IMG/VR virus record: IMGVR_UViG_2778260996_000020
Span: 1 to 28,407 of that record
Direction: 5' to 3' (one strand)
From: a virus
Lineage: Duplodnaviria > Heunggongvirae > Uroviricota > Caudoviricetes
Length of the DNA: 28,407 bases
The translations under genes and the position numbers were made by a program. Below the pieces are notes generated by a model. The model did not search any database, had not been told where the DNA came from, and was given only the letters and a program-made list of their open reading frames with translations. Below, piece by piece: positions 9,598 through 28,101 of this stretch (position 1 is the stretch's first letter; each line of letters starts with the position of its first letter).

Positions 9598-12500
9598 TTA
9601 CCCTAATTTAGCTTCAATTGCAGCAAGACGTTCACGAAGAAGTTTATTTTCTTCGCTCATTTCTTGGACCGCTTTAATTAAAAGCGCGTTCACTGCGGAG
9701 TTTGAAATTGTTAAAATTTCTTCTGGGTTATCAAAACCACCAATTTTTGCGGTTTTAACAGCTTCCGGTAATACCTCTTGTAAATCCTGTGCGATAATAC
9801 CAATCTCATGACCTATAACTTCTCGGTCATTAAGAGATTTAACTTTATCGTAGGTTTTAACTTTGAGTTTATTTACCTTATCCACCGCATTTTCTTCGTA
9901 ATCTTCAACATTAATTTTCAGACGACGATCGGAACGAATATAAACATCGTTAAAGTTTCCGTTACCAGTGGCATGAAATTCTCCACTTGCATGGAATTGA
10001 TAATCAGCACCCTGAACATGAAGAACCGCTGCCGCAGTATTATTACCATCACCCGGACAATGAACGTCCATAGCAGCGATATATTGACGCCCCCAATCAA
10101 CCGCTTTCCAAACAGCATGAGCACTGTCAATACTTTTCTGGCAGTCAACCAACAAACCAGCAGGGCGGTCTCTCCATGCAACATATGCACCACCATCAAC
10201 TTCACCACGGATAAGTCCTTGATCTGCGGCATAAGGAACACGCCCTTCCAGTTTAATCATCGCGCCCTGGAAGTGATGTGTAAATTGTCCACCGTGGTTA
10301 TTGCGAATATGTAAAATACCCTCATCTGTAGCCCAGATAACAGCCTTTTCCGTATCGCTATCATCTCTAAACCAGACGTGGCGAGCACCAGCAGAGTTTT
10401 TGATAGTAATCCCGGAAGGTCCATGCACAGTAAAAGCGCCAGCAACATCAAACATCAAACTGTTATCTGTCCTACGTTCAGTATAGAAGTGATAACCTTT
10501 GGAATCACCGACTTCCATCACTGCCGCGCGACCAACTTCTGAATTTCCCCAATTATTAATAGAGAATCGTTCAGAGCTATTATTCATCTGATTTAGGTAT
10601 AATGTACCATCAGTGAATGTTTCGCCAAAGAATCTGGTTTTAACGCCGTTAGTACCCCCCACGCGTTCAAATTCAGCCAAGAAACCTTTGGAATCTCGCA
10701 TACTCAAAACGTTATTGCGTCCTGTATTACTGTTACCCCAATGGATTAATTCAATATAGTCCATTGACTGACGAGACCCTGATCTAAACACCATATTATC
10801 TTCGATGCGGGTGCTACCATCAATTCCCAGATGTAAACAGCGTGCGGTAGCTGTGCCACCTAGATCTAATCCACCTTCGGCGAAATCATAACTAAATGGT
10901 CTACGAGTATTCCACGTCCCAAAGGAATCTTTTAAATCGGTAGTAAGAATATGGAAGCTAGAACCATCATTACGAAGGATTAAACCATAGTTACCACCTT
11001 TAACAGCCAAACGAGCATTTTCAGATAATGCAACTTCGCTATTCATTACAATTTTCTGGCCTCTACCGCCAGTAATATGTAATTCACCGTCTTCAATCAG
11101 GTTTATAGAGTTTTGACCGTTGTCGTTCCACCAAATAAAATCTTTGGTCTGACCATCACCGAAGCCAAACCAGCCATTACGAACATCTTGTCCAGTGCGA
11201 TAATCCATGAAATTAAAATGACTTGATTCGTTTGGTCCTCGACGAATATCAATACCAGCATTAGAACCGGAACCTAAGCCACCATCGATGGTCAATCTAC
11301 GAATATGCAAACCAGTCCCAGAAGACAACAATAGTTGTTGACCTGAGTCTGTACCTCCAGTGGCAAGACGATAATTCTGGTCATCAACGGTTTCATGCCA
11401 GATTGTCGCGCTGGCAGAGCTTCGAAACCGACGCAACATCTTTTTAGCATTTGTCGGTTGTTCGTTCATATGCTCAATGTCATATTGTCCTTGATGGTTT
11501 CCAGCAAAGTTTAACGTCCCACGGTTGCTAAAGTTATTGAACGATGAAATGTTAAGAGCATCAAAAATTTCGTCTGCAACAGGTTTTTCACCACCCAGAT
11601 ATTCAGGAGTATCCAACAGGTTTAAAGAAACACCACCGGAAGAAACTTGATATTCTGCTAAAACAAATCCTGTATGTGCACCGTAGTAAGCGTAAAGATC
11701 GTAATTGTCGCCATCGGTTGGAATAGCGCAAAAATGTTGTTCATAATGCCAAATAGTATAATACGCATTGAATACAACACCTTTCGGGCTATTGTTGCCG
11801 CATCGAATCACCAATTCGATAATATTGGCTTGTCCATTATGTCCTACGTTATAACCGTTACCACCAACCAAACGGATCTTAGCCGTGCGACCGTGTTGTT
11901 GTGGCATTGTCAAAGTGCCTAGTTTAAACCAACCACCCTCGATACCAAAATTAAGCGTCTTCTGGAACAGTCGGTCAATTTCTGCTTTCGAATATGCGCC
12001 AATTTCAGCCGGAGTAGGTTTATCGCCTTCATGATACATGCGGTGAGAATATGACAAATTACCTAATTCATCATAGCCGTATGTTCTTACAGTAGCATGT
12101 GGATTAGACCCATAAGTGAACTCGAAGCCACGAGCATGATTAACACCAGATGGATGCGGAACATGCAAGATCATTGCAATATGACCCGCCAGGTCATTCA
12201 TGCGGAATGCACCAAAGTAATCAAGATTACGCGCATTTGGATCATCAAAATAGTTTGCGGTCTTAGACAGCAAATAACCATCAGTATAAGTGTTTACGTG
12301 TTTTTTGATGTACTTGCCATCAGCAGATCCATCGGCTGCATCAATACGGCTTTCTAAACGTGCCAGTTCAGAATCAGTGTAAGACTTGTTATTGTCAACT
12401 TTGCTATGAATTGCTGTATTTTTGGCTTCAACATCACGGGTTAATGCTGCGACGTTATCCGCTGCCTCTTGCTTATTGGCTGCAATCACACCAGTAAGGT

Positions 12501-12963
12501 TATTGTAGGTGTCAGTTAACTGATTTTCCGCATAGACTTTATTTGCTGCGATAGTGCGGTCAGTTTCTGCCTTAATCAAATCAACCTTGTCATTGATTGC
12601 TTTGTCATTGCTTGCGATGGTTGCATCGGTGCGGGATTTAATATCATCAACTTTATTGTTAATTTCTGCGTGATTTGCTGCGATGGTTGCATCAGTAGTT
12701 TGTTTAATTTCATCTACTTTAGCGTGAATATTGCGGTCATTTACTGCAATTGTGCTATCTAGTTCTTGTTTGTTAGCATCAACTTTAGATTCTAGTGCCG
12801 CGTGAGTTTCAGGAGAAACAGAGATTTGAACTACTTCATGATCTCGGTCTTTGGTAAAAATAACATGGTCTTTAAGGTTGATTGCTACCTCACCGACCTG
12901 TAATTGTTCCGGCGTTGGTTTTTTGCCAGAAACATTAGTTCGTTTAAATTGGATTGATTGCAT
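9598..12963 (-). CDS. Tail/neck fiber protein with C-terminal intramolecular chaperone (peptidase S74-type) domain, 1121 aa
   Basis: C-terminal ~120 aa carry the Ser-Lys autoproteolysis motif SDRRLK followed by IGHEIGIIAQDLQEVLPEAV and a terminal coiled coil, typical of endosialidase / L-shaped-fiber chaperone domains. N-terminal ~150 aa of degenerate coiled-coil repeats (VDxIKxxTDATIAAN). Gly-rich central region. GAGGTGA SD. Confidence 0.8.
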   Translation of the reverse strand: MQSIQFKRTNVSGKKPTPEQLQVGEVAINLKDHVIFTKDRDHEVVQISVSPETHAALESKVDANKQELDSTIAVNDRNIHAKVDEIKQTTDATIAANHAEINNKVDDIKSRTDATIASNDKAINDKVDLIKAETDRTIAANKVYAENQLTDTYNNLTGVIAANKQEAADNVAALTRDVEAKNTAIHSKVDNNKSYTDSELARLESRIDAADGSADGKYIKKHVNTYTDGYLLSKTANYFDDPNARNLDYFGAFRMNDLAGHIAMILHVPHPSGVNHARGFEFTYGSNPHATVRTYGYDELGNLSYSHRMYHEGDKPTPAEIGAYSKAEIDRLFQKTLNFGIEGGWFKLGTLTMPQQHGRTAKIRLVGGNGYNVGHNGQANIIELVIRCGNNSPKGVVFNAYYTIWHYEQHFCAIPTDGDNYDLYAYYGAHTGFVLAEYQVSSGGVSLNLLDTPEYLGGEKPVADEIFDALNISSFNNFSNRGTLNFAGNHQGQYDIEHMNEQPTNAKKMLRRFRSSASATIWHETVDDQNYRLATGGTDSGQQLLLSSGTGLHIRRLTIDGGLGSGSNAGIDIRRGPNESSHFNFMDYRTGQDVRNGWFGFGDGQTKDFIWWNDNGQNSINLIEDGELHITGGRGQKIVMNSEVALSENARLAVKGGNYGLILRNDGSSFHILTTDLKDSFGTWNTRRPFSYDFAEGGLDLGGTATARCLHLGIDGSTRIEDNMVFRSGSRQSMDYIELIHWGNSNTGRNNVLSMRDSKGFLAEFERVGGTNGVKTRFFGETFTDGTLYLNQMNNSSERFSINNWGNSEVGRAAVMEVGDSKGYHFYTERRTDNSLMFDVAGAFTVHGPSGITIKNSAGARHVWFRDDSDTEKAVIWATDEGILHIRNNHGGQFTHHFQGAMIKLEGRVPYAADQGLIRGEVDGGAYVAWRDRPAGLLVDCQKSIDSAHAVWKAVDWGRQYIAAMDVHCPGDGNNTAAAVLHVQGADYQFHASGEFHATGNGNFNDVYIRSDRRLKINVEDYEENAVDKVNKLKVKTYDKVKSLNDREVIGHEIGIIAQDLQEVLPEAVKTAKIGGFDNPEEILTISNSAVNALLIKAVQEMSEENKLLRERLAAIEAKLG

Positions 12964-13034: not shown

Positions 13035-13868
13035 TCAGTATTCCCCGAAATCGATCCGGTCATGGATAGAAACGGCTTCAATCTCGGCTGGTGTCGGTTT
13101 TTCTTCTGTGGAATACAATTTCACCCATCCAGAATTACCGTCTTTCTGGACTGTGCGAACTCGTAAACGTGGTGCGCCGGAAGCGGTGCAAGTTAATTGC
13201 CATCCACCATCTTCATTAGGTTGAACGTGAATTAGTGAAGTATCAGCACTAAATGGGTTAGATGCGCTCGATCCCTGATAGGTTACGAAACGGTTTCCGG
13301 CTAATGCTTCGCTATCAATCGGACCTGTGAATGGGCTAATTCCCGCGCCAACACCATACATACCTTGCCGTAAAATAGCCCCCTCGGTCGCTATACCCCT
13401 TGCAAGAATCCCGCCATCTGGTTCAAGTTTAAATTCCAGTGTTACAGCTTTGTTATCACTACCACGGGTTTTGTGACTAGTGACATAAGCGTCATAGATG
13501 ACATAGTAACCAGTGTTAGCAGCACTATAGCCAGAGTTCACAACATAGAACATTCGGAAGCGTAAAGGTGTTTTATCCTCTACCGCTTTCATCAACATGT
13601 CTTGATGTTCGTCATCCAGAACACGGTTTACTACTAACGTAGTTGATTCAAGTTTACGATAACCAGCAAGTTTCCCCGTAGCGTCCTGATCATACTCTTC
13701 TAACGTCTGGATCTCTGTAGATTCGGTTATCGTCGGGAATGCTGCGATGTTCTCGATAGGACTAAATGCAGGATCGAAAAAGTCCGGCTGGTTATCCACC
13801 ATAGTAGACACGGAGACTTCAACATGCGACCCCGTGAAAATGTCTAAGTTATCTTGTGTAATATTCAT
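13035..13868 (-). CDS. Hypothetical virion structural protein, 277 aa (possible fiber-associated / neck protein)
   Basis: Lies in the head-to-tail junction region. C-terminal KPTPAEIEAVS motif recurs in the adjacent fiber protein (DKPTPAEIGAYS; N-terminal KKPTPEQLQVGE). Confidence 0.45.
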   Translation of the reverse strand: MNITQDNLDIFTGSHVEVSVSTMVDNQPDFFDPAFSPIENIAAFPTITESTEIQTLEEYDQDATGKLAGYRKLESTTLVVNRVLDDEHQDMLMKAVEDKTPLRFRMFYVVNSGYSAANTGYYVIYDAYVTSHKTRGSDNKAVTLEFKLEPDGGILARGIATEGAILRQGMYGVGAGISPFTGPIDSEALAGNRFVTYQGSSASNPFSADTSLIHVQPNEDGGWQLTCTASGAPRLRVRTVQKDGNSGWVKLYSTEEKPTPAEIEAVSIHDRIDFGEY

Positions 13869-14768: not shown

Positions 14769-16772
14769 TCATTCAGAGATATGAAGAACTTTCAGAGCTT
14801 CCGGCTGGGTTACAACGTAATCCAGATCTACCCAGATACGCGGAACAATTGCGGACTGTGCACGGTAGGTGGTGTCGTCCATATCCAGTTCCAGACCGCC
14901 CCACTCACCGATAGTAATACCGGAGAAGTCACCCAGAACGATGTGGTCTGCCGGAATAACACCAGAAGTAACTACTTCGTAACCAGCCAGTTTGCCGTTT
15001 TCGATGATATAACCGGAAACGCCGTTATCTTTCAGGGTAGATTCCAGTTCAGCAGCAGTTGCACCGCTCATTGCAAACTTGATGGACTGTGCCGGAACGC
15101 CAGCGTCGGTCAGTTTAGCAATTTCTTTCAGGAAGTCTTTGTAGGTGAAAGCAGCTTTCTTCTCAACGCGGCTAGCGTCTACCAGTTGTTTAACCAGACC
15201 AGCCGGACCACGATCGTTAGCTTTATCAGACAGAATCAGTTGTTCCAGTTTGATACGAACAGCCTGGTTGATGTGATCAGTGATCAGGGTAGCGATACCC
15301 GGAACGGTTTTAATGCTCTGACGGCTGATCGGGTTGCCACCAGCAAAAGTCTTAGGAGACAGTTTCACGTTTGCAAATTCAGCTTTGCCTTCCGGTGCAG
15401 CACCGTTTTCATCAACGAAGCCGAAAGCGTCAACGCTGGATTTAGTCATTTTTGGAATAGCGGTCGGAGCAGTCAAGCCACTGTAAACAGTCACACCCAG
15501 ACGACCCAGAACGGATTCCGGCATCAGCATTTCGATGTAGGATTCAGTCATCAGTTTTTCATCGGTGATAGCAGTCAGGTCAGCTTTGGTGTTACCAGCA
15601 GCAGCAGCACGCATAGCAGCAGCCGGAACGAATACAGAGCCACCACGAGCAGCACGACCACGCTGCATAGTTGCAGTAGCAGCCATCGCAGAAAACTCGG
15701 CTTCGTGAGCACCCAGAGCTTCACCATCTACCAGAGAGCGAATTACGTTGTTCAGGTCAAAAGTTTTTTCCATTTTAGAGTCCTTAATTTGTTGTTCGTT
15801 ATTACGTTGAGCATTGACGAGATTATTTAGTGCCTTAGTGCGGAATGCTTCCGGCGTCATATCTTTAACTGCCAATGCGCGTTCTAATTCTTCGTCGTTA
15901 ATATTTAGTTCGCGAGCTATCTCGCGAATTTCTAATTCGTCTTCTTCGGAACGTTCAGCCACTTCCTCGATTTTTTCTTCTTCAACCGGAGCGGCTTCAC
16001 GTTCTTCTTTTACTTCTTCTGCTTCCCGAACAGTTGAACTATCATCATCAACACTTTCAGGATGTTCAGCGTCTTTTCCGTCTTCGAGATTTTCATCTTC
16101 TTTATTCTCTTCAACTTGGCGCTCTTGAGTTTCTTCTACTTCCGGTTCTTTAATTTCTTCTACCGGAGTTTCTTCAACCTGAGCGGGTTCTTGTTCTTCT
16201 TTGATTTCTTCGATTTGTTCTTTAGTCATATCGCGTTTAGCCTCCAAATTAACTGTGATAGTATTTAGAGAGCGATTTAAACCGACCGTATCGTCAGCAG
16301 GAACGGTAACGAAACTTAATTCGTATGGTGCCCACTTAGTAACAATTAATTGCCCTTTGGCGTAATCGATGTGATATTCTTTAATGTCATAACCGACAGA
16401 AATTTTTTCCATCGTACCTTCAATGACTTTATTGCGAATATCATTAGCCAAAGTCCCATGCTTGGAGAATTTAACCAGAGCACGACCTACGTTATCCGCA
16501 TCGATTCGAGCGTTACAAACAACACCAATGTGATTATCGAAATTATGATTGAACAGCAACGGAGCGTTATTATTCAGACGAGACAGATCAACCGCTTCCG
16601 GTGTATGTACCAGAATTTCATCTAATACCACCATTTCTTGATTTTGCTCATCCCAAAATTGGCGCTGATAAGGCTGTGTACTTGAGAAAGCAATTTCAAA
16701 TTCGTATTGATCGTTATGCCCTTCGTTAATAACTCCACCGTAACCGTTAAGATCGCGGCGAAATTTAAGCAT
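14769..16772 (-). CDS. Fused prohead protease (HK97 S78-like) - acidic scaffold-like linker - HK97-fold major capsid protein, 667 aa
   Basis: N-terminal ~170 aa resemble a prohead protease domain. Central ~130 aa are extremely Glu-rich and coiled-coil-like. C-terminal ~330 aa resemble an HK97-type major capsid protein. AAAGGTGA SD. Directly downstream of portal. Confidence 0.75.
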   Translation of the reverse strand: MLKFRRDLNGYGGVINEGHNDQYEFEIAFSSTQPYQRQFWDEQNQEMVVLDEILVHTPEAVDLSRLNNNAPLLFNHNFDNHIGVVCNARIDADNVGRALVKFSKHGTLANDIRNKVIEGTMEKISVGYDIKEYHIDYAKGQLIVTKWAPYELSFVTVPADDTVGLNRSLNTITVNLEAKRDMTKEQIEEIKEEQEPAQVEETPVEEIKEPEVEETQERQVEENKEDENLEDGKDAEHPESVDDDSSTVREAEEVKEEREAAPVEEEKIEEVAERSEEDELEIREIARELNINDEELERALAVKDMTPEAFRTKALNNLVNAQRNNEQQIKDSKMEKTFDLNNVIRSLVDGEALGAHEAEFSAMAATATMQRGRAARGGSVFVPAAAMRAAAAGNTKADLTAITDEKLMTESYIEMLMPESVLGRLGVTVYSGLTAPTAIPKMTKSSVDAFGFVDENGAAPEGKAEFANVKLSPKTFAGGNPISRQSIKTVPGIATLITDHINQAVRIKLEQLILSDKANDRGPAGLVKQLVDASRVEKKAAFTYKDFLKEIAKLTDAGVPAQSIKFAMSGATAAELESTLKDNGVSGYIIENGKLAGYEVVTSGVIPADHIVLGDFSGITIGEWGGLELDMDDTTYRAQSAIVPRIWVDLDYVVTQPEALKVLHISE

Positions 16773-18909: not shown

Positions 18910-20817
18910 TTAGAACGATGTTACCCAGCTACGGCCTCTATTTGGGCGTCTGGCGATGTTTTGACGTTGCGGTCGTGTGATTGGCTTAGTTTCTTCGATT
19001 TGCTCGTTAGATTGCGATTTAGGAGCTTCTACGGATTCTTCAACAACACGGTTTAAGCTGTCTTTCATTGCAATGAGTTTATCCCATGACATTTTTGAAA
19101 GGACGTAGCGAGAAGCCGCATAGCTATAAACCAGACAGTCGAGAGCCTCGTTTCGGGTACTACCTGGATTTTTCACCCAACGCACGCCAGTAGTAGTACG
19201 CTTGATGGATTCACTCAAAAGCTGATCGAGATAATCATCAGGAACGGTTTCTGATATTTCTAAGCCAATATGAGGATTATCTTTCAGGTTTCTAACCAGC
19301 ATTTCACGAACAGCGGATTTGCCAACGTTAACACCCAACATAAGCAATTCATGACCACCTGTGCGGGTAGGTTTAACCGGAATCACTGGAGCATTACCAG
19401 ATGAACTACCTTTGATCGCGTGTAGGTTCTTCCACTTGCCGCAAATACGGTATCCGGCTTGAGTGAATCGACCGTTCGATGTATCAAGGAAGCTGGCGAG
19501 CATAGGAACACGTTCACCCTTAACGTTATAGAATTTGGTTTTCTTGAAGTTAACCAGACGATCCCAAACAGGTGATTCATATCGTTCACAGTTATGATCG
19601 TAAAAGCTGCGGTGATCCAGAATGTAAACCTTATCTTTCGCTACACCTAAGATGGTAGATTCTGCGCGGTCCAATTGCTGGTCAATTCCTGAACACAAGA
19701 AAATAACGTCATCAGGAATATTCTCGATAGAAACATCTGTTTTGAGTTGTTCCAGTTCATTTGCTTCTACTGCCGTGTCCTGATCGTCGTACACCTTACC
19801 TAATACGGTGTTAAAAAATGATTGTAAATCAAAGGATTGCCACGCATGACTAAAATCAACCACACAAGCGCGGATCGTGCTGAAAGGTGAATACAGACGG
19901 CTGATCCAGAATCCTGCTACCTCACTTTCGCGGGTTGCTCTCCACTCGCCTTGCGCTACTGCCCTGATTCGTTCCCCTTCTGTCCATGCGTTCTTACAGT
20001 GGGGGCAAATATAACGAGCGGTATCAGGATCGGGTAAGTTCTTACCATCGATGTTACGCCATTCAAATTGAACGTTTTCCCACTCGATCACCTGGTGTTC
20101 CCCGCAATGCGGACACGGAACAAAAAACATACGCATATCGCTTGATAACCATTGCTGGTTAATGCTTCCGAGCTTACTGGTCGGGGTACTGGATACGACT
20201 AATCGGCCTTCATCGCCAAAGGTAGTTAAACGGTTAGCAGCCAGTGCCACCGGATCACCTTCTTCTGAGGCTGTAGCAGCATCGATTTCGTCTAGTAGTC
20301 CGACCTTTGCAGTCTTACCGCGCAGGGTTGATGGACTGGTAAGCGATACCATGTACAGGAAGTGATTCGTTTTTAGCTGGAGTTGGTTATTGTTGTTAAC
20401 CGCATTGCGATCATTCTTGTCTGTAACCACGTCTTTTAATGCATCACATGCTTCGATAGACGGTCGGATCTTACCAGCGAGATATTGAGACATTTCTTTA
20501 GCGGTTGATTGTCCGATAATCATATTGCATGGATCGTTAGCCATCTGGTTAAACAGGATGCCATTCAGGATGGTAGTCTTTCCGATCTGCGCACTGGTCA
20601 TCAGAACATACTTTTTCTTGTTCTCAAGGAAAGGAGCATCAATCATACCTTTCTGGAATGACAGCAATTTAACTTTATCCCCAGCTTGAGGACCATCTAC
20701 CAGCACCATATTAGCTTCGCACCATTCCGATGGAAGGAGTTTAGGCGGTGGCGTAATATATTTGGCTGCATTTCTGAGAATCTTTTTTAATTTGGCCTTA
20801 TTAGAAATTAGTTTCAT
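18910..20817 (-). CDS. terL: Terminase large subunit (GpA-like), 635 aa
   Basis: Walker A-like SAQIGKTT and Walker B-like VGLLDEID in the N-terminal ATPase half. Cys-x2-Cys pairs (CPHCGEHQ...CPHCKNAW). Acidic nuclease-like C-terminal half. GAGGGT SD. Confidence 0.85.
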
Positions 20818-20905
20818 GTAATTACCCTCATTACGAAATATGAGAGTATTTATTAAATTGTTGATTTTCTGATAAATACGGGTATTAAGATTTAAGGGGG
20901 GTTGT

Positions 20906-21856: not shown

Positions 21857-22699
21857 TTACAGTCCGAAGACTTCCAGTGATCCAACATTCTGGCGAATCA
21901 GCAAAGCAGTGTTATTGACAATTGCTCGTGAGTTGTTCGGCTGTGGCAATTTCAAAGTTGCGGCCTTTTCTTCTTCAAGCAATCCGAGTTTTACGAGATG
22001 CGGGATAGCATCAGCAGTGAACTCGATCTGACCGTGTGCCGACATACGAGCGAACATATAGCCAGGAGGAAGCAGATCATAGCCTTTAGGCTTACCAGAA
22101 GCATCCAGACGACGCTCAAGAACACCAGCAGCACATAAACCTTTCAGAATCATTTGTACCGTCGTAGAGCCTCGTTTTTCGCCTAATAAGCGGCTAAGAC
22201 TGTGTGTGTCGATAGCTTTACGAACATGCAATTCAACCAGTTGTTTCTTTTCTTGAATCAGTTGTTCGTTTGCGGCTTCCAATTCCATTGCCTCACGAAT
22301 CCAGTCGAGCTTAGTCATGTTTGCGTAAGGGTTGATTTGCTGAGAACGCAGTTTTTCATTTTCTTCTTTCAGTCGTTTCCATTCCTGAATAACAACCATT
22401 CGACGCTTAACATCGTAACCAGTAACAAGAGTCAGAGTCATTTCTTCGTCTAAGTGATATACCGGTTCTTTAACAGCATACCCTAAGTTATTGATTCTCT
22501 CGACAAATTCAGTTTTGAGCTGATCGATAATACCTAAAGATTCGTACATTTCGCGAATATCGCGCATTACATTGCTGTGTTTCTTTCCGGTAAATTCAGC
22601 GATCTGACGAGAAGACATGGTCAGCGGTTTGGTGTTATCAACAACCAGAGACACGGAAGCAGTTTTAACAGCAGTATTCATAGCAGTAACAGTATTCAT
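21857..22699 (-). CDS. Rha-family phage regulatory protein (antirepressor-like), 280 aa
   Basis: N-terminal LTMSSRQIAEFTGKKHSNVMRDIREM matches the Rha/pRha domain signature. Coiled-coil middle. AAGGGG SD. Own terminator downstream. Confidence 0.7.
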   Translation of the reverse strand: MNTVTAMNTAVKTASVSLVVDNTKPLTMSSRQIAEFTGKKHSNVMRDIREMYESLGIIDQLKTEFVERINNLGYAVKEPVYHLDEEMTLTLVTGYDVKRRMVVIQEWKRLKEENEKLRSQQINPYANMTKLDWIREAMELEAANEQLIQEKKQLVELHVRKAIDTHSLSRLLGEKRGSTTVQMILKGLCAAGVLERRLDASGKPKGYDLLPPGYMFARMSAHGQIEFTADAIPHLVKLGLLEEEKAATLKLPQPNNSRAIVNNTALLIRQNVGSLEVFGL

Positions 22700-22788: not shown

Positions 22789-23121
22789 TTACCAATCGAT
22801 TTCTACTTGGTCTTCTTCATAATAAGGAATCGCATATTCATAACGCCAATTTTCGATGATTTCACGTTCTTCATTAGTAAGAAGGTGATTGTTAACTGGA
22901 GTCGCATTGTGATTACCAGCTTCGAATTGCTCGCGAACTTCCAGCATTGCATGAATACCAGTTAAGGTCATCAGATCAAACGGAACATGCATACTACGGG
23001 AGATAGTTTCACGGGATACGCCCCAATCATTTTCTACATGGCTAGGGGTTACAGAAACGGTTTTGCCGGAGATTTTAACAGTCCAGTCATACAGGGATTT
23101 AGTGATGGTAAATTCTTTCAT
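22789..23121 (-). CDS. Hypothetical protein, 110 aa
   Basis: ORF preceded by SD AAGAGGATG and a near-consensus sigma70 promoter (23178-23206). Confidence 0.5.
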   Translation of the reverse strand: MKEFTITKSLYDWTVKISGKTVSVTPSHVENDWGVSRETISRSMHVPFDLMTLTGIHAMLEVREQFEAGNHNATPVNNHLLTNEEREIIENWRYEYAIPYYEEDQVEIDW

Positions 23122-23241: not shown

Positions 23242-23700
23242 TTACAGCATATCTAAGCCTTCATCGTAACCGTAGAAGCCACCGTGAGAAGAGAAAGCGA
23301 TTGGTGCGTAGTCTTCGTCTTCCTCATCTTCTTCATCTTGTTCTGGGGCTTCCTGAGCGGTTTCTTTGCCGTAATCAGCCATAATCTGGTCAAGATCGGC
23401 GATCCCATAGTAAGAGCCTAAATCAACGTCATATTCACGGACTTGAAACGGCAGATCATCACGAACAATAATTGCTGGAATATCGTTGTATTGAAGACGA
23501 CCTTCATCAGTAAAACAGTCGATGATCACAGTAGGACGACCATTTCGTTTTAAAGCGTAGAAAGCAGTTGAGTAGTTGGAGTCTTCGGAATGACGAATGA
23601 TGTTATAACCACGATTAGCGAAAACTTCTAGCATATGGAAGTTGCCATAGTTTTCAGAGTCCAGACCCAGAAGTACGAAAGGAGTTTTAGTATTGATCAT
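23242..23700 (-). CDS. Hypothetical protein with strongly acidic C-terminal tail, 152 aa
   Basis: ORF with AGAGGA SD. C-terminal EQDEEDEEDEDY stretch. Confidence 0.5.
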   Translation of the reverse strand: MINTKTPFVLLGLDSENYGNFHMLEVFANRGYNIIRHSEDSNYSTAFYALKRNGRPTVIIDCFTDEGRLQYNDIPAIIVRDDLPFQVREYDVDLGSYYGIADLDQIMADYGKETAQEAPEQDEEDEEDEDYAPIAFSSHGGFYGYDEGLDML

Positions 23701-23923
23701 AGTGGAAATCCTCTAAAAGAAAGTGAATCAAGTAAGTTCACTATTATTTATAACGAGAATTTTTTATCTATTTGGAAGTGATTGGATTCAGTCGGGCTAA
23801 AGCCCTCCTTCATATATTTGATTAAATCATCATCAAAACGAAGAAGTATCTTTAGAATATAAGAATCTTTCTTTTGGAGAAATTATAATCAGGAAGCAAT
23901 TTAGCAACCGAAGGTTGCAATCC

Positions 23924-23969
23924 CGAAGGGATACCAATCACTTTCTAGAAAGTGATTGGTATCCCTTCG
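23924..23969. repeat. 46 bp perfect palindrome
   Basis: CGAAGGGATACCAATCACTTTC-TA-GAAAGTGATTGGTATCCCTTCG; every position is self-complementary. A GCAACCGAAGGTTGC hairpin lies immediately upstream. Confidence 0.9.
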
Positions 23970-24277
23970 TTCGTTTACTAGAATCAGTTAGTAACTAGTA
24001 TTAAATCCCTTTCTAAGAAAATCCTTTCAAAAGCGAGTGAACGCCGTAGGCGTGAACGTGAGCGAAGCGAACTATCCAATCCCTTTCGAATCCTGCTTGC
24101 AGGTCTTAGAAGGTGTTGATGGGCGCTTCGCGCACGGCTACGCCGTATTCTTTTTGCGAGATCTTTCTTGAACGTAGTGAGAGAAAACGAGCAAAAAGGA
24201 GAACGTTAGTTCGAATTTTATATTCTATGGTCTGTGGGGTGAAATGTCTTTCAAGATCATACACTTATGAGATTGAA

Positions 24278-24399
24278 GTGTAGGGTTAGTGTAGGTGTGT
24301 AGGTTTCATAGTGTAGGTTTGAGGGTGTTATAGTGTAGGTTTACTGACTAGTGTAGTGTAGGCCAATACCTTTAAAGCGTAGGTTTGTAGTGTAGGTTT
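24278..24399. repeat. Iteron array: about 8 direct copies of (A)GTGTAGGTTT
   Basis: Copies at about 24278, 24290, 24297, 24311, 24333, 24356, 24377 (GCGTAGGTTT) and 24390. All same orientation, irregular 0-14 bp spacing. Confidence 0.85.
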
Positions 24400-24593
24400 T
24401 TCATCAAAAATTTTGATAGAAAATTCTTGTATATTATTTAACCGGAAAATCACCAAAAATCGCTGTAAATGCATGATTTAAAAAGAATTATCAAAAGGTC
24501 GCCGTGCTATAATAGGTTATAAAGGTTGATAATCGTTATCCGCCATTTTCACACAAAAATTTTGATAGTCATTTCTCGCTTAGGTCAAGTGCA

Positions 24594-24622
24594 TTGACAA
24601 CTGTCAAGGATTATTTTATACT
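24594..24622 (+). promoter_or_regulatory. Near-consensus sigma70 promoter for the 59 aa HTH / 339 aa / 80 aa operon
   Basis: TTGACA (24594-24599), 17 nt spacer, TATACT (24617-24622). The -35 lies inside a TTGACAACTGTCAA palindrome. Confidence 0.55.
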
Positions 24623-24964
24623 TTTTCTCATTGGTAGGGGTTGAAATTTTAGAAACAATCCCCATATTGATGATAAACAAGATTTTTTCGTGTATAAATA
24701 CATGCATGAAATGATTGTTCACTTCTGAAAATCCCCTGATTCACTGTTAACACACACAGCACTGGTTAAACACACAGTGCTTTTTCGATTGAATAATGTA
24801 CGAATTGATTAATTATTAATCTTCTCTTTAGCAATTCGTGCTCCCGCTGATCAGATATACAGTGGTTTTGCAGGGTTTTCTGAAATGACTTTTATAAATA
24901 GAAGTATCGAGGGCGAAAAGCTCTTTTTATTATCCTTATTAATCCACATTTGAGGAATCTACTT

Positions 24965-25144
24965 ATGGCTAGACCTGTTAAGTTTACTCGTGAAATGATT
25001 GTTGATATTGCTAAACGCTTTTATGGCGATACTGAACGAGGCGGCGAGAATTTCTTTAAGAAGGAAGGAATTGATAGAAGCGGATTCTATAAGCTAATGA
25101 AGAAATACGAAATTCAGATAAAGATTAACGTTCAAGTTTGTTAA
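24965..25144 (+). CDS. Small HTH DNA-binding protein, ~59 aa (paralog of 21544-21768)
   Basis: Track ORF starts at TTG (24950). The ATG at 24965 has a TGAGGAA SD. ARPVKFTREMIVDIAKRFY aligns with GRPARFNREQLAAIVKAYY of the paralog. Shared GI...FYK motif. Confidence 0.5.
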   Translation: MARPVKFTREMIVDIAKRFYGDTERGGENFFKKEGIDRSGFYKLMKKYEIQIKINVQVC

Positions 25145-25175
25145 TCCACTTTCACTGAGAATTATACGATGGCTT

Positions 25176-25216
25176 TAAAAATAAAAAGCCTCCCTTGTTG
25201 CAGCAAAGGAGGCTTG
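25176..25216 (-). terminator. Minus-oriented hairpin + T-run (antisense terminator candidate) between small HTH gene and 339 aa gene
   Basis: AAGCCUCC...GGAGGCUU 8 bp stem. On the minus strand it is followed by UUUUUAUUUUU. On the plus strand no U-tract follows. Confidence 0.4.
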
Positions 25217-25260
25217 AAATGAACAATTAAAACTAACACAGCATTCAGGAGTATTTATAA

Positions 25261-26280
25261 ATGAAAAATTCTAAGCGCATCACCTTCAACCTGTTTATTA
25301 AATCCAACGGCAAACTGAACATTACCGTCATGGAAGGTAAAGCAAGCAAACAAGACAAATCCTTTGAAGTAGTATCCGGTAAGACTCTGACCGAAATGCG
25401 TCAGAATGCTGGCATCAAAGACGGTGCTGAATGGCAGATCACTAACCGTTTCGACAAACGTCACGTTAAACCTACACTGGTAGAAGGTGAATCCGTTTAT
25501 TGCTTCGCTCGTGCTGCTAAAGCCGATGAAACTTACTATCTCGCTGTTGTTAAAACTGCTTCCGGCTTCCGTGCTGTAATGCATCACAAGAGCAAGCGTA
25601 ACGAATACGGCGTAGAGACCCAGGAAGTTGCTAAACGCTTCCGTACTGTTGCTACCGAATCCACTGTAAAAGATGTTTCTGGTACTGTTAACACCACTAA
25701 AGGCGGTTCCTTCTACAACCACGCATTACAGGTTACTTCCTCCTTCTTCTGCAAAAAAGAAGCACAGAAAGAAGTTGCTCCGGTAGTAGTTGAAGAAGTT
25801 AAAGAAGAAGTTGCAGTGGTTGAATCTTCCGAAGTTGAAGCACTGAACGCACGCATTGCTGAACTGGAAGCAGAAATGGCAGCAGTTAAAGCAGAAAACG
25901 CATCTCTGAAAGCTGAACTGTCAGCACAGGAAACCACTTTCGAAGTAGCAGCGGTTGAAGTTGAAGCAGTTGAAGAAAAATCCATTGATGAAGAACTGGA
26001 AGAACTCCTTAACTATCGTTGGGGTAACGGTGAAGAAGTAGAACAGAAAGAAGCTGATCCGGTAGTAGTTCCGGTTCCGGTTGAAGCAGAATCCGCACCA
26101 GTTACCAACTTTGAAACACTGCGCAATAACTTTATGGCTAAATTCAAAACCACTTGGGAAGATACCGAAGAAGAACAAGAAGAGATTGAAGTAAACGAAG
26201 ACGAGATCCGCGAAGCACATATGGCACTGCATGACGCTATCTATGACACCAACTACAGCGCCTACGCATACGCAGCTTAA
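25261..26280 (+). CDS. Hypothetical acidic coiled-coil protein, 339 aa, probable highly expressed early protein
   Basis: AGGAG SD. Codon usage strongly biased toward major E. coli-type codons (CTG, CGT, GAA, AAA, GTT, ACC, TCC), unlike neighbouring genes. Central Ala/Glu coiled coil. Acidic C-terminal third. Confidence 0.6.
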   Translation: MKNSKRITFNLFIKSNGKLNITVMEGKASKQDKSFEVVSGKTLTEMRQNAGIKDGAEWQITNRFDKRHVKPTLVEGESVYCFARAAKADETYYLAVVKTASGFRAVMHHKSKRNEYGVETQEVAKRFRTVATESTVKDVSGTVNTTKGGSFYNHALQVTSSFFCKKEAQKEVAPVVVEEVKEEVAVVESSEVEALNARIAELEAEMAAVKAENASLKAELSAQETTFEVAAVEVEAVEEKSIDEELEELLNYRWGNGEEVEQKEADPVVVPVPVEAESAPVTNFETLRNNFMAKFKTTWEDTEEEQEEIEVNEDEIREAHMALHDAIYDTNYSAYAYAA

Positions 26281-26295
26281 TAGAGGGGTGAATCT

Positions 26296-26538
26296 ATGAT
26301 GAATCAAAACAAAGAATTTCTGGGTAATCTGATGTTAGAAATTACCAAAATGAAAGAAAGAATGGTAGCGATGGAATCAGAGATTAAAACACTTAAAGCT
26401 GATAATAAGGCGTTGAGAAAGTCCTTAAAGCTGATTGATGAGACTAATGCGGTTATGATGGATCATGTATTCCCTGAGTGGCGAAATGAAACTAAACCTA
26501 CACAACATAAGAAACTTACACTTCGAATTGTTGCATAA
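26296..26538 (+). CDS. Hypothetical coiled-coil protein, 80 aa
   Basis: GAGGGG SD. Translationally close to the upstream gene. Heptad-like sequence. Confidence 0.5.
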   Translation: MMNQNKEFLGNLMLEITKMKERMVAMESEIKTLKADNKALRKSLKLIDETNAVMMDHVFPEWRNETKPTQHKKLTLRIVA

Positions 26539-26560
26539 AAAAAAGGACTCCGAAGAGTCC
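26537..26560 (-). terminator. Minus-oriented intrinsic terminator
   Basis: Minus-strand RNA: GGACUC-UUCG-GAGUCC followed by UUUUUUUU. Confidence 0.6.
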
Positions 26561-26636
26561 CTAGTAAGTTTAGGTTAGGTTTGCACAACAAAGATGAGGT
26601 TATAATGAACATAATGCTACATTATTCTTTAAAGCC

Positions 26637-26662
26637 AGAAAAATAACCGCCCCGAAGGGCGG
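26637..26662 (-). terminator. Minus-oriented intrinsic terminator
   Basis: Minus-strand RNA: CCGCCC-UUCG-GGGCGG followed by UUAUUUUUCU. Confidence 0.55.
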
Positions 26663-27250: not shown

Positions 27251-27802
27251 TTAAGACACATCAAATTCATCGTCTTCTTCTGGTTCTTGTTCCGGTTCAT
27301 CCATTAATGGTAATTCTTCTTCCTCGTCTTCTCCCAAATCTGCATTTTCGAACAAGTCCCCTACTTCATTTAAACGACGCTCGATAATCTCTCTTAGCTT
27401 ATTCTTCAATGTTTTCTGGTCATTGGCAGATTCGAGAATTTCTAGGGCATCGATTGTGGCGATCTGCAAAATAGTCTGCTTCACTTTCCCGCAATATTCC
27501 GCTAGCTCCTGCTCCACATACCCGACGGGAATCAGGAGATTCATCGCTTCCTGGTTCTCTCGTTCGGCTGCATCTGCTAATGCTCTCTCACGGCGTAATT
27601 TCTCTACGTCGATTTGTTCCTTGACAGTAGTTTCTTTAAGCGGGTTGATGATATTTTTCAAGACCCATTCTGTTCCTTCTTTGGCTGGCACGCGGCGGGT
27701 ATTGGTATTAAATGGCATTCCTCGTTCTTGCCATTTCTTAGCGGCGTTAATTGTATAGCCGTATAAACGGGAAATTTCTGTAAGGGTTAATTCTTCTTTC
27801 AT
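27251..27802 (-). CDS. Nu1-like DNA-binding protein (candidate terminase small subunit), ~183 aa
   Basis: Start placed at second ATG (27802), which has a GGAGGA SD. N-terminal LTEISRLYGYTINAAKKWQERGMPF resembles the winged-HTH of lambda Nu1 (IRTIQNWQEQGMPV). Followed by EKLRRE coiled coil and acidic C-terminus. Confidence 0.5.
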   Translation of the reverse strand: MKEELTLTEISRLYGYTINAAKKWQERGMPFNTNTRRVPAKEGTEWVLKNIINPLKETTVKEQIDVEKLRRERALADAAERENQEAMNLLIPVGYVEQELAEYCGKVKQTILQIATIDALEILESANDQKTLKNKLREIIERRLNEVGDLFENADLGEDEEEELPLMDEPEQEPEEDDEFDVS

Positions 27803-28101
27803 CCGGTTATCCTCCATTAAATTTGCGTAAAATTATTTATCTGATCTGCGCATTCAGGAGAGCGCCTAAAACGCTTTATAACGAAGGGAAAGATCGAGGC
27901 ATGGAAAGGGATTGGCGGGTGTTAATAGTCGCGTAGCGACCGCGCTGGTGGGCTGCACTGCACCTGTTTTGAAATCTCACACGTACATCAAAAACCGGGG
28001 TGCCGAAAACTCCCTTTATTTCACCCGTGGAACAGTACCTTTTGATTTGGTCAAGTCTTTTTTATAAATAATCGAAAATATTTTTCACGCGAGGGCAAAT
28101 C

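Follow-up and report, generated by a model that had tools for sequence, protein, structure and literature searches.

A codon-optimised prophage protein whose N-terminal domain co-varies with an upstream iteron array, as a candidate type-specific replication initiator

The replication initiator O of phage lambda is modular, with a variable N-terminal and a constant C-terminal part, and both lambda O and the plasmid initiator TrfA are clients of ClpX. In Staphylococcus aureus pathogenicity islands (SaPI) and phage-inducible chromosomal islands (PICI), the specificity domain of the Rep protein is exchanged between related elements together with the iterons that flank an AT-rich stretch. The locus described here recalls these systems. 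It lies in IMG/VR virus record IMGVR_UViG_2778260996_000020 (Caudoviricetes), whose 28,407 nucleotides (nt) constitute the window, that is, the whole stretch of DNA that was analysed. The gene in question is an open reading frame (ORF) at 25261-26280 on the plus strand, with an ATG start and 339 codons for amino acids, and an array of iterons is found ~0.9 kb upstream of it. At slightly less than an even chance, we read its product as a type-specific DNA-recognition protein of the early control/origin module of a prophage, most likely an origin-binding replication initiator. Origin binding and replication initiation as its specific role is a claim that we hold a shade more tentatively.

The window corresponds to the structural half of a tailed temperate phage, encoded on the minus strand, where the genes for the large terminase (TerL), portal, capsid fused to an S78 protease, tail tube, tape measure and fibres were identified. 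The host element is a ~35-kb prophage of Escherichia coli chromosomes, which has its insertion site in hicB or beside ycdX and encodes a large serine recombinase. Of complete E. coli genomes, ~1% have a prophage of this family, which also occurs in Shigella, Escherichia albertii and Salmonella. Nothing among the deposited phages and plasmids matches the prophage, no replication gene or CI-type repressor is recognisable anywhere in its ~35 kb, and the literature searched on this prophage, on its hicB/ycdX integration and on codon-biased prophage genes held nothing relevant. The gene for the 339-residue protein occupies a short plus-strand cassette between a 1.25-kb non-coding region and a Nu1-like small-terminase gene (27251-27817, minus strand; PHROG 57, E = 7e-16); it lies on the strand opposite to the structural operon, 4.4 kb from TerL. 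For a prophage family without an isolated representative, the strongest candidate for the missing core replication/immunity function is this gene with its iterons, which define at least five exchangeable specificity types.

An exchangeable cassette of iterons and N-terminal domain

On reading the non-coding DNA, a type A iteron array, absent from the first-pass annotation of the window, was recognised at 24276-24398 (plus strand). It comprises ~9 same-strand copies of TAGTGTAGGTT(T), spaced ~8-22 base pairs (bp). The word GTGTAGGTT, allowing up to one mismatch, has 17 matches in the window against 4.2 expected, and seven of them fall inside the array. With the conserved 59/60-residue protein encoded between the iterons and the gene as probe, 29 more loci (numbered with the prefix L) were gathered, and 35 loci were cross-tabulated. 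Iteron arrays occur at the same position in all 35, and the repeat unit depends on the cassette type: (i) TAGTGTAGGTT in type A; (ii) TAGTGCAGGGT in type B; (iii) TTTCAGGGGCAAAA in type C; (iv) ACGGGGA, with 11-bp spacing, in type D; and (v) TTCAAATGCTACTTT, with 21-bp spacing, in type E. Types A and B are spaced at ~11 or 20-23 bp. Copies at ~11 or ~21-23 bp, all on one strand, suggest binding along one face of B-DNA.

Across these 35 loci, five types of N-terminal domain (N-domain) pair one-to-one with the five iteron types. The similarities run in parallel: iterons A and B agree at 8/11 positions and the corresponding N-domains, N2 and N3, are 40-45% identical, while in type C both the iterons and the N-domain (N1) are unrelated to those of types A and B. 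N2, N3 and N4 are homologous, sharing an FF strand and the invariant residues W58, R63, K66, M107, H109, S111 and R113; N1 and N5 make up another family, for which no relationship to N2, N3 and N4 was detectable. By contrast, the rest of the cassette does not follow the iterons. The 59/60-residue gene, which sits between the iterons and the larger gene, reassorts independently of iteron type (one variant goes with A, C and D cassettes), and so does the C-terminal module (C-module) of the 339-residue protein, independently of both N-domain and iteron type.

The clearest case of exchange is provided by strain UTME-12, whose prophage is near-isogenic to the window (major capsid protein 96%, TerL 99%, the small-terminase-like protein 96% and several others 97% identical). 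There, the same slot is occupied by a 318-residue protein of the same architecture, whose C-module is homologous to that of the 339-residue protein (only ~35% identical, despite TerL being 99% identical) and whose N-domain cannot be aligned with it. The exchanged segment is exactly 24036-26538, iterons included, and the UTME-12 array consists of eight copies of TTTCAGGGGCAAAA. The only categorically different protein in this segment is the N-domain. We infer that the N-domain is the iteron-recognition module, and consider it probable, from this co-variation, that the protein binds the iterons; the pattern indicates a sequence-specific DNA-binding protein rather than a DNA mimic. An extra single iteron abuts the promoter in L004 and L005. 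Reverse-oriented iteron copies at 25469, within the gene, and at 26495 and 26513, within the downstream 80-residue ORF, were set aside as lineage-specific and probably due to chance.

In 5,426 complete E. coli genomes, the type A allele of the window was found in 18 and its TerL in 55; the type C allele was found in 37, and the two alleles together account for the 55 TerL-carrying genomes. Since some allele is present in every prophage of the family (55 genomes) and its position is kept across lineages, a moron or lysogenic-conversion gene was rejected.

Several further observations were made around the array. Strain UTME-9 (NZ_CP157110.1) holds one type A and one type C prophage, and in BS74R-D (NZ_CP063332.1) two places match the type C allele; the presence of prophages of equal or different type in one genome is relevant to the question of whether the types are immunity or incompatibility groups. 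At L020 15337-15385, relic type A iterons (TAGTGTAGTGCTAGTGTAGGTTT...TATGTAGGTTT) stand beside the type C array of UTME-12 and look like an exchange scar. Between the iterons and the leftward operon there is a perfect 46-bp palindrome (23924-23969; CGAAGGGATACCAATCACTTTCT/AGAAAGTGATTGGTATCCCTTCG), only partly conserved in related loci, which could be a terminator, an operator or a cruciform. Lastly, two GC-rich blocks at 24040-24150 (AACGCCGTAGGCGTGAACG... and GCGCTTCGCGCACGGCTACGCCGTA), each with a small hairpin, lie ~130 bp from the iterons; they are strongly conserved even among lineages with protein identities of only 40-60%, and could represent a cos site, a site of primosome assembly or one of single-strand initiation.

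Codon usage and architecture of the protein

The codon adaptation index (CAI) was computed with weights built from 29 E. coli K-12 ribosomal-protein and elongation-factor genes. The gene scores 0.750, the highest value among the 30 ORFs of the window (mean of the remaining 29, 0.410 +/- 0.101; z = 3.35). The first-pass annotation had pointed to a use of host major codons far more consistent than in the structural genes, to be checked against host ribosomal genes, and this is borne out on both counts: within the window the major capsid protein reaches 0.607 and the tail tube 0.698, and 0.750 falls inside the E. coli ribosomal-protein range, the reference genes themselves spanning 0.56-0.84. As a null, synonymous codons were resampled for the protein's own amino-acid sequence, 2000 times per usage set. 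Phage average usage gave 0.499 +/- 0.026 and capsid plus tail-tube usage 0.646 +/- 0.028, with 0/2000 reaching 0.750 in either case; ribosomal-protein usage gave 0.708 +/- 0.022, and 3.2% of the resamplings reached 0.750. The bias is not a strand effect, as the plus-strand ORFs flanking the gene score only 0.27 and 0.32. It is, moreover, common to the family: alleles of all types range from 0.64 to 0.76 (0.71 for the type C allele of UTME-12), and the allele is the highest-scoring gene of its locus wherever neighbouring genes were scored.

Very high expression, as judged from codon usage, is thus well supported, and it extends from the single gene of the original claim to the whole family. The suggestion that expression is early is plausible, given the strand opposite to the structural operon, a near-consensus sigma-70 promoter upstream and LexA-like boxes in the leader. 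An abundant non-virion protein is compatible with the data. For calibration, genes of three well-known phages were scored on the same scale: (i) in lambda, E 0.53, D 0.50, bet 0.48, nu3 0.47, nu1 0.36, O 0.34 and cI 0.34; (ii) in T7, the gp2.5 single-stranded DNA-binding protein (SSB) 0.67, capsid 0.63, Ocr 0.59 and gene 18 0.42; and (iii) in P22, coat 0.56, ant 0.39, gp18 0.31 and c2 0.28. Among these, only the T7 SSB exceeds the capsid gene of its own phage.

Strong codon adaptation was also observed in the first two genes of the leftward operon, 23242-23700 and 22789-23121 (both minus strand; CAI 0.56 and 0.60, respectively), whose counterparts in related loci score 0.54-0.63. The corresponding 152- and 110-residue proteins have no family matches. 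The former has an acidic tail with the conserved end ...DDYAPIxFSSxGxxYGYxEAFDML.

As to the 339-residue protein itself, its composition agrees with the earlier description of a basic beta-rich N-domain, a coiled coil and an acidic C-terminal part, the latter amounting to half of the protein. Residues 1-168 have an isoelectric point (pI) of 9.77 and a net charge of +12, and residues 169-339 a pI of 4.05 and a net charge of -34. In the AlphaFold2 models, which are of low confidence throughout (predicted local distance difference test, pLDDT, 52-59), the N-domain is rich in beta-strands, residues 189-254 form a long helix and further helices follow towards the C-terminus. Three parts can be distinguished. 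The N-domain (residues 1-168; 25261-25764, plus strand; pI 9.8) is the type-specific module N2 that co-varies with the iterons, and its predicted strand order is beta1-beta2-beta3-alpha-beta... It is followed by a leucine-zipper-like coiled coil (residues ~189-225; 25825-25935, plus strand), recognised from weak Pfam matches, the model and the comparison of alleles. When read by eye, its heptads are V190, L193, I197, L200, M204, V207, N211, L214 and L218, in register only over ~190-221, with Asn211 at an 'a' position; Asn at this position is a hallmark of dimeric leucine zippers. The zipper core EN-x-x-L-K/R-x-E is kept in all types, and alleles differ by heptad-sized insertions or deletions. 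The third part (25936-26277, plus strand), delimited by composition and model, consists of an acidic Val/Glu/Pro-rich linker and a C-terminal helical module (residues ~280-339) that ends in ...LHDAIYDTNYSAYAYAA. An acidic C-terminal half is kept in all alleles.

The protein terminates in ...YAYAA, and 122/123 full-length homologues of types A and B end in -AA. The same terminus is found in 6/8 mutually unalignable C-module classes, and is absent in classes C1 (-YCQ) and C7 (-MFA). Such a tail fits the C-motif-1 (ssrA-like) type of ClpX degron and suggests recognition by ClpX in most alleles. An ssrA-like degron as a universal feature was weakened by the commonest allele, type C, which ends in -YCQ.

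The family is unannotated. Pfam, PHROGs, PADLOC, NCBIfam and PDB sequence profiles contain no annotated relative: the sole Pfam matches are weak and to the TSC22 and bZIP zipper families, and the only PADLOC matches, also weak and in the coiled-coil region, are to LmuB. A fold search with the low-confidence models retrieved no fold homologue of known function. A tblastn search against 50,697 phages and 72,556 plasmids confined the family to these prophages, as did databases of 5.8 billion proteins and 1.8 billion representatives, with no annotated relative, and a scan of GTDB species representatives for this protein and for the 59/60-residue one found nothing. A P22-type antirepressor was also considered, and no Ant/Rha match (PHROG 63 / Phage_pRha, ANT domains) was found in the protein; a Rha/Ant domain is carried by another gene of the window, 21857-22699.

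The regulatory region and the surroundings of the cassette

To assess conservation upstream of the gene, four lineages whose proteins are only 40-80% identical were aligned. The upstream elements are conserved across all four, and both hairpins described below show compensatory changes. Furthermore, the layout of small ORF, antisense-oriented terminator, mini-ORF and large ORF is conserved in all five types.

Immediately past the iterons comes an AT-rich patch (24390-24480; fractional GC content 0.23-0.27, against 0.28-0.38 for the intergenic region as a whole). A pair of CAAAAATTTTGATAG boxes (24405-24427 and 24554-24576) brackets it, and type D loci have these boxes too. This patch could, as a weak candidate, be a DNA-unwinding element. 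A sigma-70-type promoter candidate, TTGACA-17-TATACT, with 11/12 matches, follows at 24594-24622 (plus strand); its -35 element lies inside the inverted repeat TTGACA-AC-TGTCAA, and this promoter cassette is kept in L004, L005 and L006. From the promoter to an intrinsic terminator extends a conserved non-coding leader of ~300 nt (24630-24932, plus strand), which may be a regulatory RNA or an attenuator. Rfam has no match anywhere in the window, this leader included. A leader box, CTCTTTAGCAATTCGTGCTCC (24824-24844), occurs once in the window and twice in L004. The terminator, a hairpin with a T-run at 24909-24932 (plus strand), closes the leader before the 59/60-residue ORF, and its stem is one of those with compensatory changes across lineages.

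A motif scan placed three LexA-operator-like boxes, CTG-N10-CAG, in this leader (24744-24759, 24762-24777 and 24847-24862); thus, 3/5 of the sites of this kind in the window fall within 24742-24864. Their positions are kept in L001, L005, L032, L046, L047 and L050, which represent cassettes of types A, C and D, and the best matches to the LexA consensus are 16/20 in L005 and 18/20 in the Salmonella locus L006 (TACTGTATGAATATACAGTA). These boxes point to SOS control, that is, to expression at induction rather than in the lysogen.

For the small conserved ORF (24965-25144, plus strand; 59 residues in the window, MARPVKFTRE...EGIDxSxFxKLxKKYxI), comparison among all cassette types gives identities of 45-64%. 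Neither Pfam nor PHROGs has a match for it, and it is possibly an Arc- or CopB-like regulator. Downstream of it, at 25148-25169 (plus strand), the alignment revealed the conserved box ACTTTCACTGAGAA and, after it, TACGAT, which resembles a -10 element and reads TATGAT in other loci. The box is unique in the window and, together with TACGAT, is possibly the promoter of the large gene or an operator. An upstream box ACTTTsAsTGAGAA was rejected as a recurrent phage promoter motif, given that it occurs only once in the window.

The next element is an intrinsic terminator on the minus strand (25175-25215), formed by a 12-bp stem (25186-25215) and a T5AT5 tail (25175-25185). The T-run accompanies this hairpin on the minus strand only in 35/35 loci, and in 7/8 variants the hairpin is more stable as minus- than as plus-strand RNA, by 1.3-5.2 kcal/mol. 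It would be the 3' end of a putative short antisense RNA across the 5' untranslated and ribosome-binding region of the gene, with a predicted length of ~70 nt and a predicted end at 25178. In L036, ~60-90 nt upstream of the homologue (start 4298), the inner hairpin is the exact reverse complement of that of the window, with unchanged flanks; this stem-loop appears to have been flipped in place.

GGAGG, in the 3' arm of the hairpin, precedes a 6-nt spacer and the mini-ORF ATG AAC AAT TAA (25219-25230; all three, 25208-25230, plus strand), and mini-ORFs of 2-4 codons are present in 7/8 representative loci across types. The Shine-Dalgarno sequence of the large gene, AGGAG (25247-25251), is separated from the start codon by a conserved 9-nt spacer, GTATTTATAA (the two together, 25247-25260, plus strand). 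It is a good one, although not quite the consensus that had been claimed for it, and AAAGG takes its place in other lineages. Read on the minus strand, the spacer is TTATAAATAC, a word at 25251-25260 that resembles a -10 element and from which the antisense RNA could be transcribed. The idea of a sigma-70 antisense promoter conserved within the first codons was rejected, TAAACA-18-TAGAAT (25297-25268) being specific to the lineage of the window. The word TTATAAATAC, with up to one mismatch, occurs nine times in the window against 3.7 expected, among others at 20846-20855, 20870-20879, 23744-23753, 24892-24901, 25251-25260 and 28062-28071. Most copies lie 27-73 nt upstream of ORF starts, in sense orientation, and the word may be a phage-specific -10-type promoter element, with the proviso that the AT-rich composition of intergenic DNA could inflate the count.

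At their other end, type A cassettes carry an accessory coiled-coil ORF of 80 residues (26296-26538, plus strand), which type C cassettes lack. A 286-residue Salmonella protein (L006 11070-11930) has the C-terminal ~75 residues of this ORF in common with it, tail ...PTLRxVA included, and the position of the ORF is a variable accessory slot. Similarity to the UTME-12 prophage resumes at 26538, and two intrinsic terminators on the minus strand, 26562-26543 and 26662-26647, form the right-hand border of the swappable cassette (26543-26662).

Some features of the structural half are also worth recording. The Nu1-like gene is 6.4 kb from the gpA-like large terminase gene (18910-20817, minus strand), with the opposite-strand cassette in between, an unusual arrangement for a lambda-type terminase. 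In the major capsid protein (14769-16772, minus strand; 667 residues), an S78 prohead protease domain is fused to an HK97-type capsid domain, and strong terminators follow the capsid (14631-14610) and tail-tube (8119-8100) genes. A 1121-residue protein similar to a long-tail-fibre distal subunit (9598-12963, minus strand) and a 277-residue protein (13035-13868, minus strand) are encoded between the capsid and head-tail connector genes, not with the tail-tip genes.

Competing readings and comparison with known systems

As a replication initiator, the 339-residue protein would work as follows. Its N-domain would bind the iterons, which are arrayed in helical phase ~0.9 kb upstream; it would dimerise through the short leucine zipper, and the long acidic linker and small C-terminal helical module would contact a separate partner, encoded by either the phage or the host. 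The C-terminal Ala-Ala of most alleles resembles a ClpX tag. Expression would probably be off in the lysogen and be switched on by the SOS response through the LexA-like leader boxes, with further gating by the leader terminator, the small upstream protein, the short antisense RNA over the ribosome-binding site and the mini-ORF. Once on, the protein would be made in very large amounts. This role is favoured for two reasons: (i) a phage without any other recognisable replication gene needs an origin-recognition protein; and (ii) initiator genes have this modular layout and this control circuit.

A number of facts, gathered here, weigh against it. The main tension is codon bias: lambda O (0.34) and P22 gp18 (0.31) are far below the 0.64-0.76 of this family, and a CAI above that of the capsid gene, seen only for the T7 SSB, is atypical for initiators, repressors and small terminases alike. 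The protein belongs to no Rep, O or winged-helix family according to hidden Markov model (HMM) and fold searches, and its N-domain is predicted, in low-confidence models, to be mostly beta-strand. The commonest allele lacks the terminal -AA. The AT-rich patch is unremarkable as an unwinding element, because the whole region is AT-rich. The LexA-like boxes are absent from L004, L020 and L028 and, where present, lie downstream of the strongest promoter candidate. No conserved -35 element was found for the proposed antisense promoter. Finally, there are only five independent types behind the pairing of iterons and N-domains, and part of it is explained by mere co-inheritance of the physically linked iterons and gene.

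The alternative that best withstands the evidence is that the protein binds the iterons as a regulator of transcription and not as an initiator, be it an immunity-type repressor, an SOS-induced master activator or a counter-silencer of H-NS. We deem this unlikely; it draws on the same pairing and cassette swap. The leftward late operon and the rightward cassette flank the array, and in L004 and L005 the promoter has a single iteron right next to it. The allelic types are reminiscent of heteroimmunity (UTME-9 carries prophages of both type A and type C), and no CI-type repressor is recognisable in the prophage. A counter-silencer would nucleate on the array between the two divergent operons and then spread, which requires many copies and would explain the abundance. 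Nevertheless, the iterons overlap neither of the promoter candidates in the window, and lambda cI (0.34) and P22 c2 (0.28) are not codon-optimised. A maintenance repressor in particular is at odds with the LexA-like boxes, which argue against expression in the lysogen, and strict exclusion by immunity with the genome in which two places match the type C allele, if both are complete prophages.

In a second alternative, to which we would assign only a low probability, the protein is neither a classical initiator nor a repressor. It would be an SOS-induced, very abundant hub that nucleates on its cognate iterons and builds a large nucleoprotein assembly or condensate on the phage genome by means of the zipper, the long acidic disordered linker and a C-terminal short motif, and it could recruit host replication factors or displace H-NS. 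If true, this would explain both the codon optimisation, at the level of ribosomal proteins, of a sequence-specific DNA-binding protein and the grafting of two unrelated DNA-binding domains onto the same scaffold.

It is improbable that the protein is an abundant early binder of nucleic acids without sequence specificity (SSB-like) or a DNA mimic (Ocr- or ArdA-like), with no functional link to the iterons. Among the calibration phages, a CAI on a par with the capsid gene or above it belongs to T7 gp2.5 SSB (0.67), T7 Ocr (0.59), lambda D (0.50) and lambda bet (0.48), a basic N-domain followed by an acidic tail resembles SSBs, the predicted order of secondary-structure elements is compatible with an oligonucleotide-binding (OB) fold, and the gene is downstream of a strong sigma-70 promoter. 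Yet neither an OB-fold core nor any SSB, Ocr or ArdA match was detected by HMM or fold search. A non-specific binder is not expected in five N-domain types, each matching the adjacent iteron, nor with two unrelated N-domain families on the same scaffold, and the N4 domain is not even basic (pI 6.3). The first-pass annotation had proposed, from composition, a DNA mimic or an inhibitor of the nucleoid-associated kind. This proposal is not supported: N-domain and iterons co-vary one-to-one, the N-domain has a pI of 9.8, and nothing resembling Ocr, ArdA or a nucleoid-associated protein appeared in Pfam, PHROGs, PADLOC, NCBIfam or PDB.

Still less probable is a packaging-specificity factor, in which the N-domain would sit on cosB- or pac-like repeats, the coiled coil would oligomerise and the tail would bind TerL. 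Small terminase subunits do have a three-part layout like that of this protein, the conserved GC-rich blocks (24040-24150) are ~130 bp from the iterons, and identities to the window in L005, L004 and L006 roughly track each other (79, 57 and 56% for TerL; 67, 43 and 38% for the 339-residue protein). On the other hand, the window has a separate Nu1-like gene, the protein has no match to the small terminase family, the C-module is only ~35% identical between prophages whose TerL is 99% identical, small terminases have a low CAI (lambda nu1 0.36, T7 gene 18 0.42), and TerL is 4.4 kb off on the other strand.

The least probable reading is a virion decoration or fibre protein anchored to the capsid by the C-module, with the variable N-domain outward and co-inheritance as the sole link to the iterons. 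It draws on a CAI on a par with the capsid gene or higher (lambda D being an example), on C-modules that are homologous between A and C (near-identical virion backbones) and not in type B (divergent backbone), and on the fact that variable distal domains are typical of surface proteins. Against it, the gene is outside the late operon on the opposite strand, behind a sigma-70 promoter, LexA-like boxes and putative antisense control, the by-eye Asn at the zipper 'a' position speaks for a dimer and not a trimer, the terminal -AA is similar to a degron of cytoplasmic proteins, and no PHROG structural family matches. A scaffolding protein was rejected, the capsid gene being an S78 protease fusion and the gene lying outside the head module.

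Were the protein a replication initiator, it would found a new, unannotated initiator family with swappable N-domains from two unrelated sequence families, and its expression signature would contradict the usual picture of initiators as scarce and rate-limiting. In any case, the locus is a compact natural example of layered control, with LexA boxes, leader terminator, small regulator, antisense RNA (the latter putative) and mini-ORF.

Among described systems, phage SSBs such as T7 gp2.5 share with this protein a codon adaptation above that of the capsid gene, being the only such class in the three calibration phages, as well as an N-domain that binds nucleic acids (predicted here) and, after it, an acidic C-terminal tail whose conserved end is aromatic. 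They differ in that the 339-residue protein has a coiled coil, no OB-fold match and an N-domain that co-varies with specific repeats.

As regards control, the immI region of P22 (arc - sar - ant) has the same order and geometry: a small regulator ORF, an opposite-strand terminator, a mini-ORF and a ~300-residue gene. The copB - copA - tap - repA region of plasmid R1 also has the order and geometry of the region described here. Arc, Ant, CopB and RepA have no sequence homologue in this locus, the antisense RNA is putative in the present case, ant has a lower CAI (0.39), and neither P22 immI nor R1 has a type-matched iteron array upstream.

The closest parallels are found among initiators. Lambda O, P22 gp18 and the Rep proteins of iteron plasmids (RepA, pi, TrfA) combine, as this locus does, a type-specific N-terminal module with direct repeats at ~1-2 helical turns by AT-rich DNA, and they have a separable C-terminal partner-binding module and a size of ~300 residues. 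The differences are several: (i) lambda O and the plasmid Reps have no sequence or fold similarity to this protein, whose N-domain is predicted to be beta-rich, not a winged helix; (ii) its iterons are 0.9 kb upstream, not inside or beside the gene; (iii) the CAI of lambda O and P22 gp18 is 0.31-0.34, as opposed to the ribosomal-protein level seen here; and (iv) the leucine zipper and the 100-residue acidic linker set it apart from lambda O and the Reps. The Reps of SaPI are helicases with recognisable domains, whereas this protein has no NTPase motif or HMM match. Nonetheless, its variable N-terminal and constant C-terminal modularity mirrors that of lambda O, the terminal -AA of most alleles makes a ClpX link shared with lambda O and TrfA likely, and, as in the Rep-ori modules of SaPI and PICI, the putative specificity domain and the iterons are exchanged jointly.

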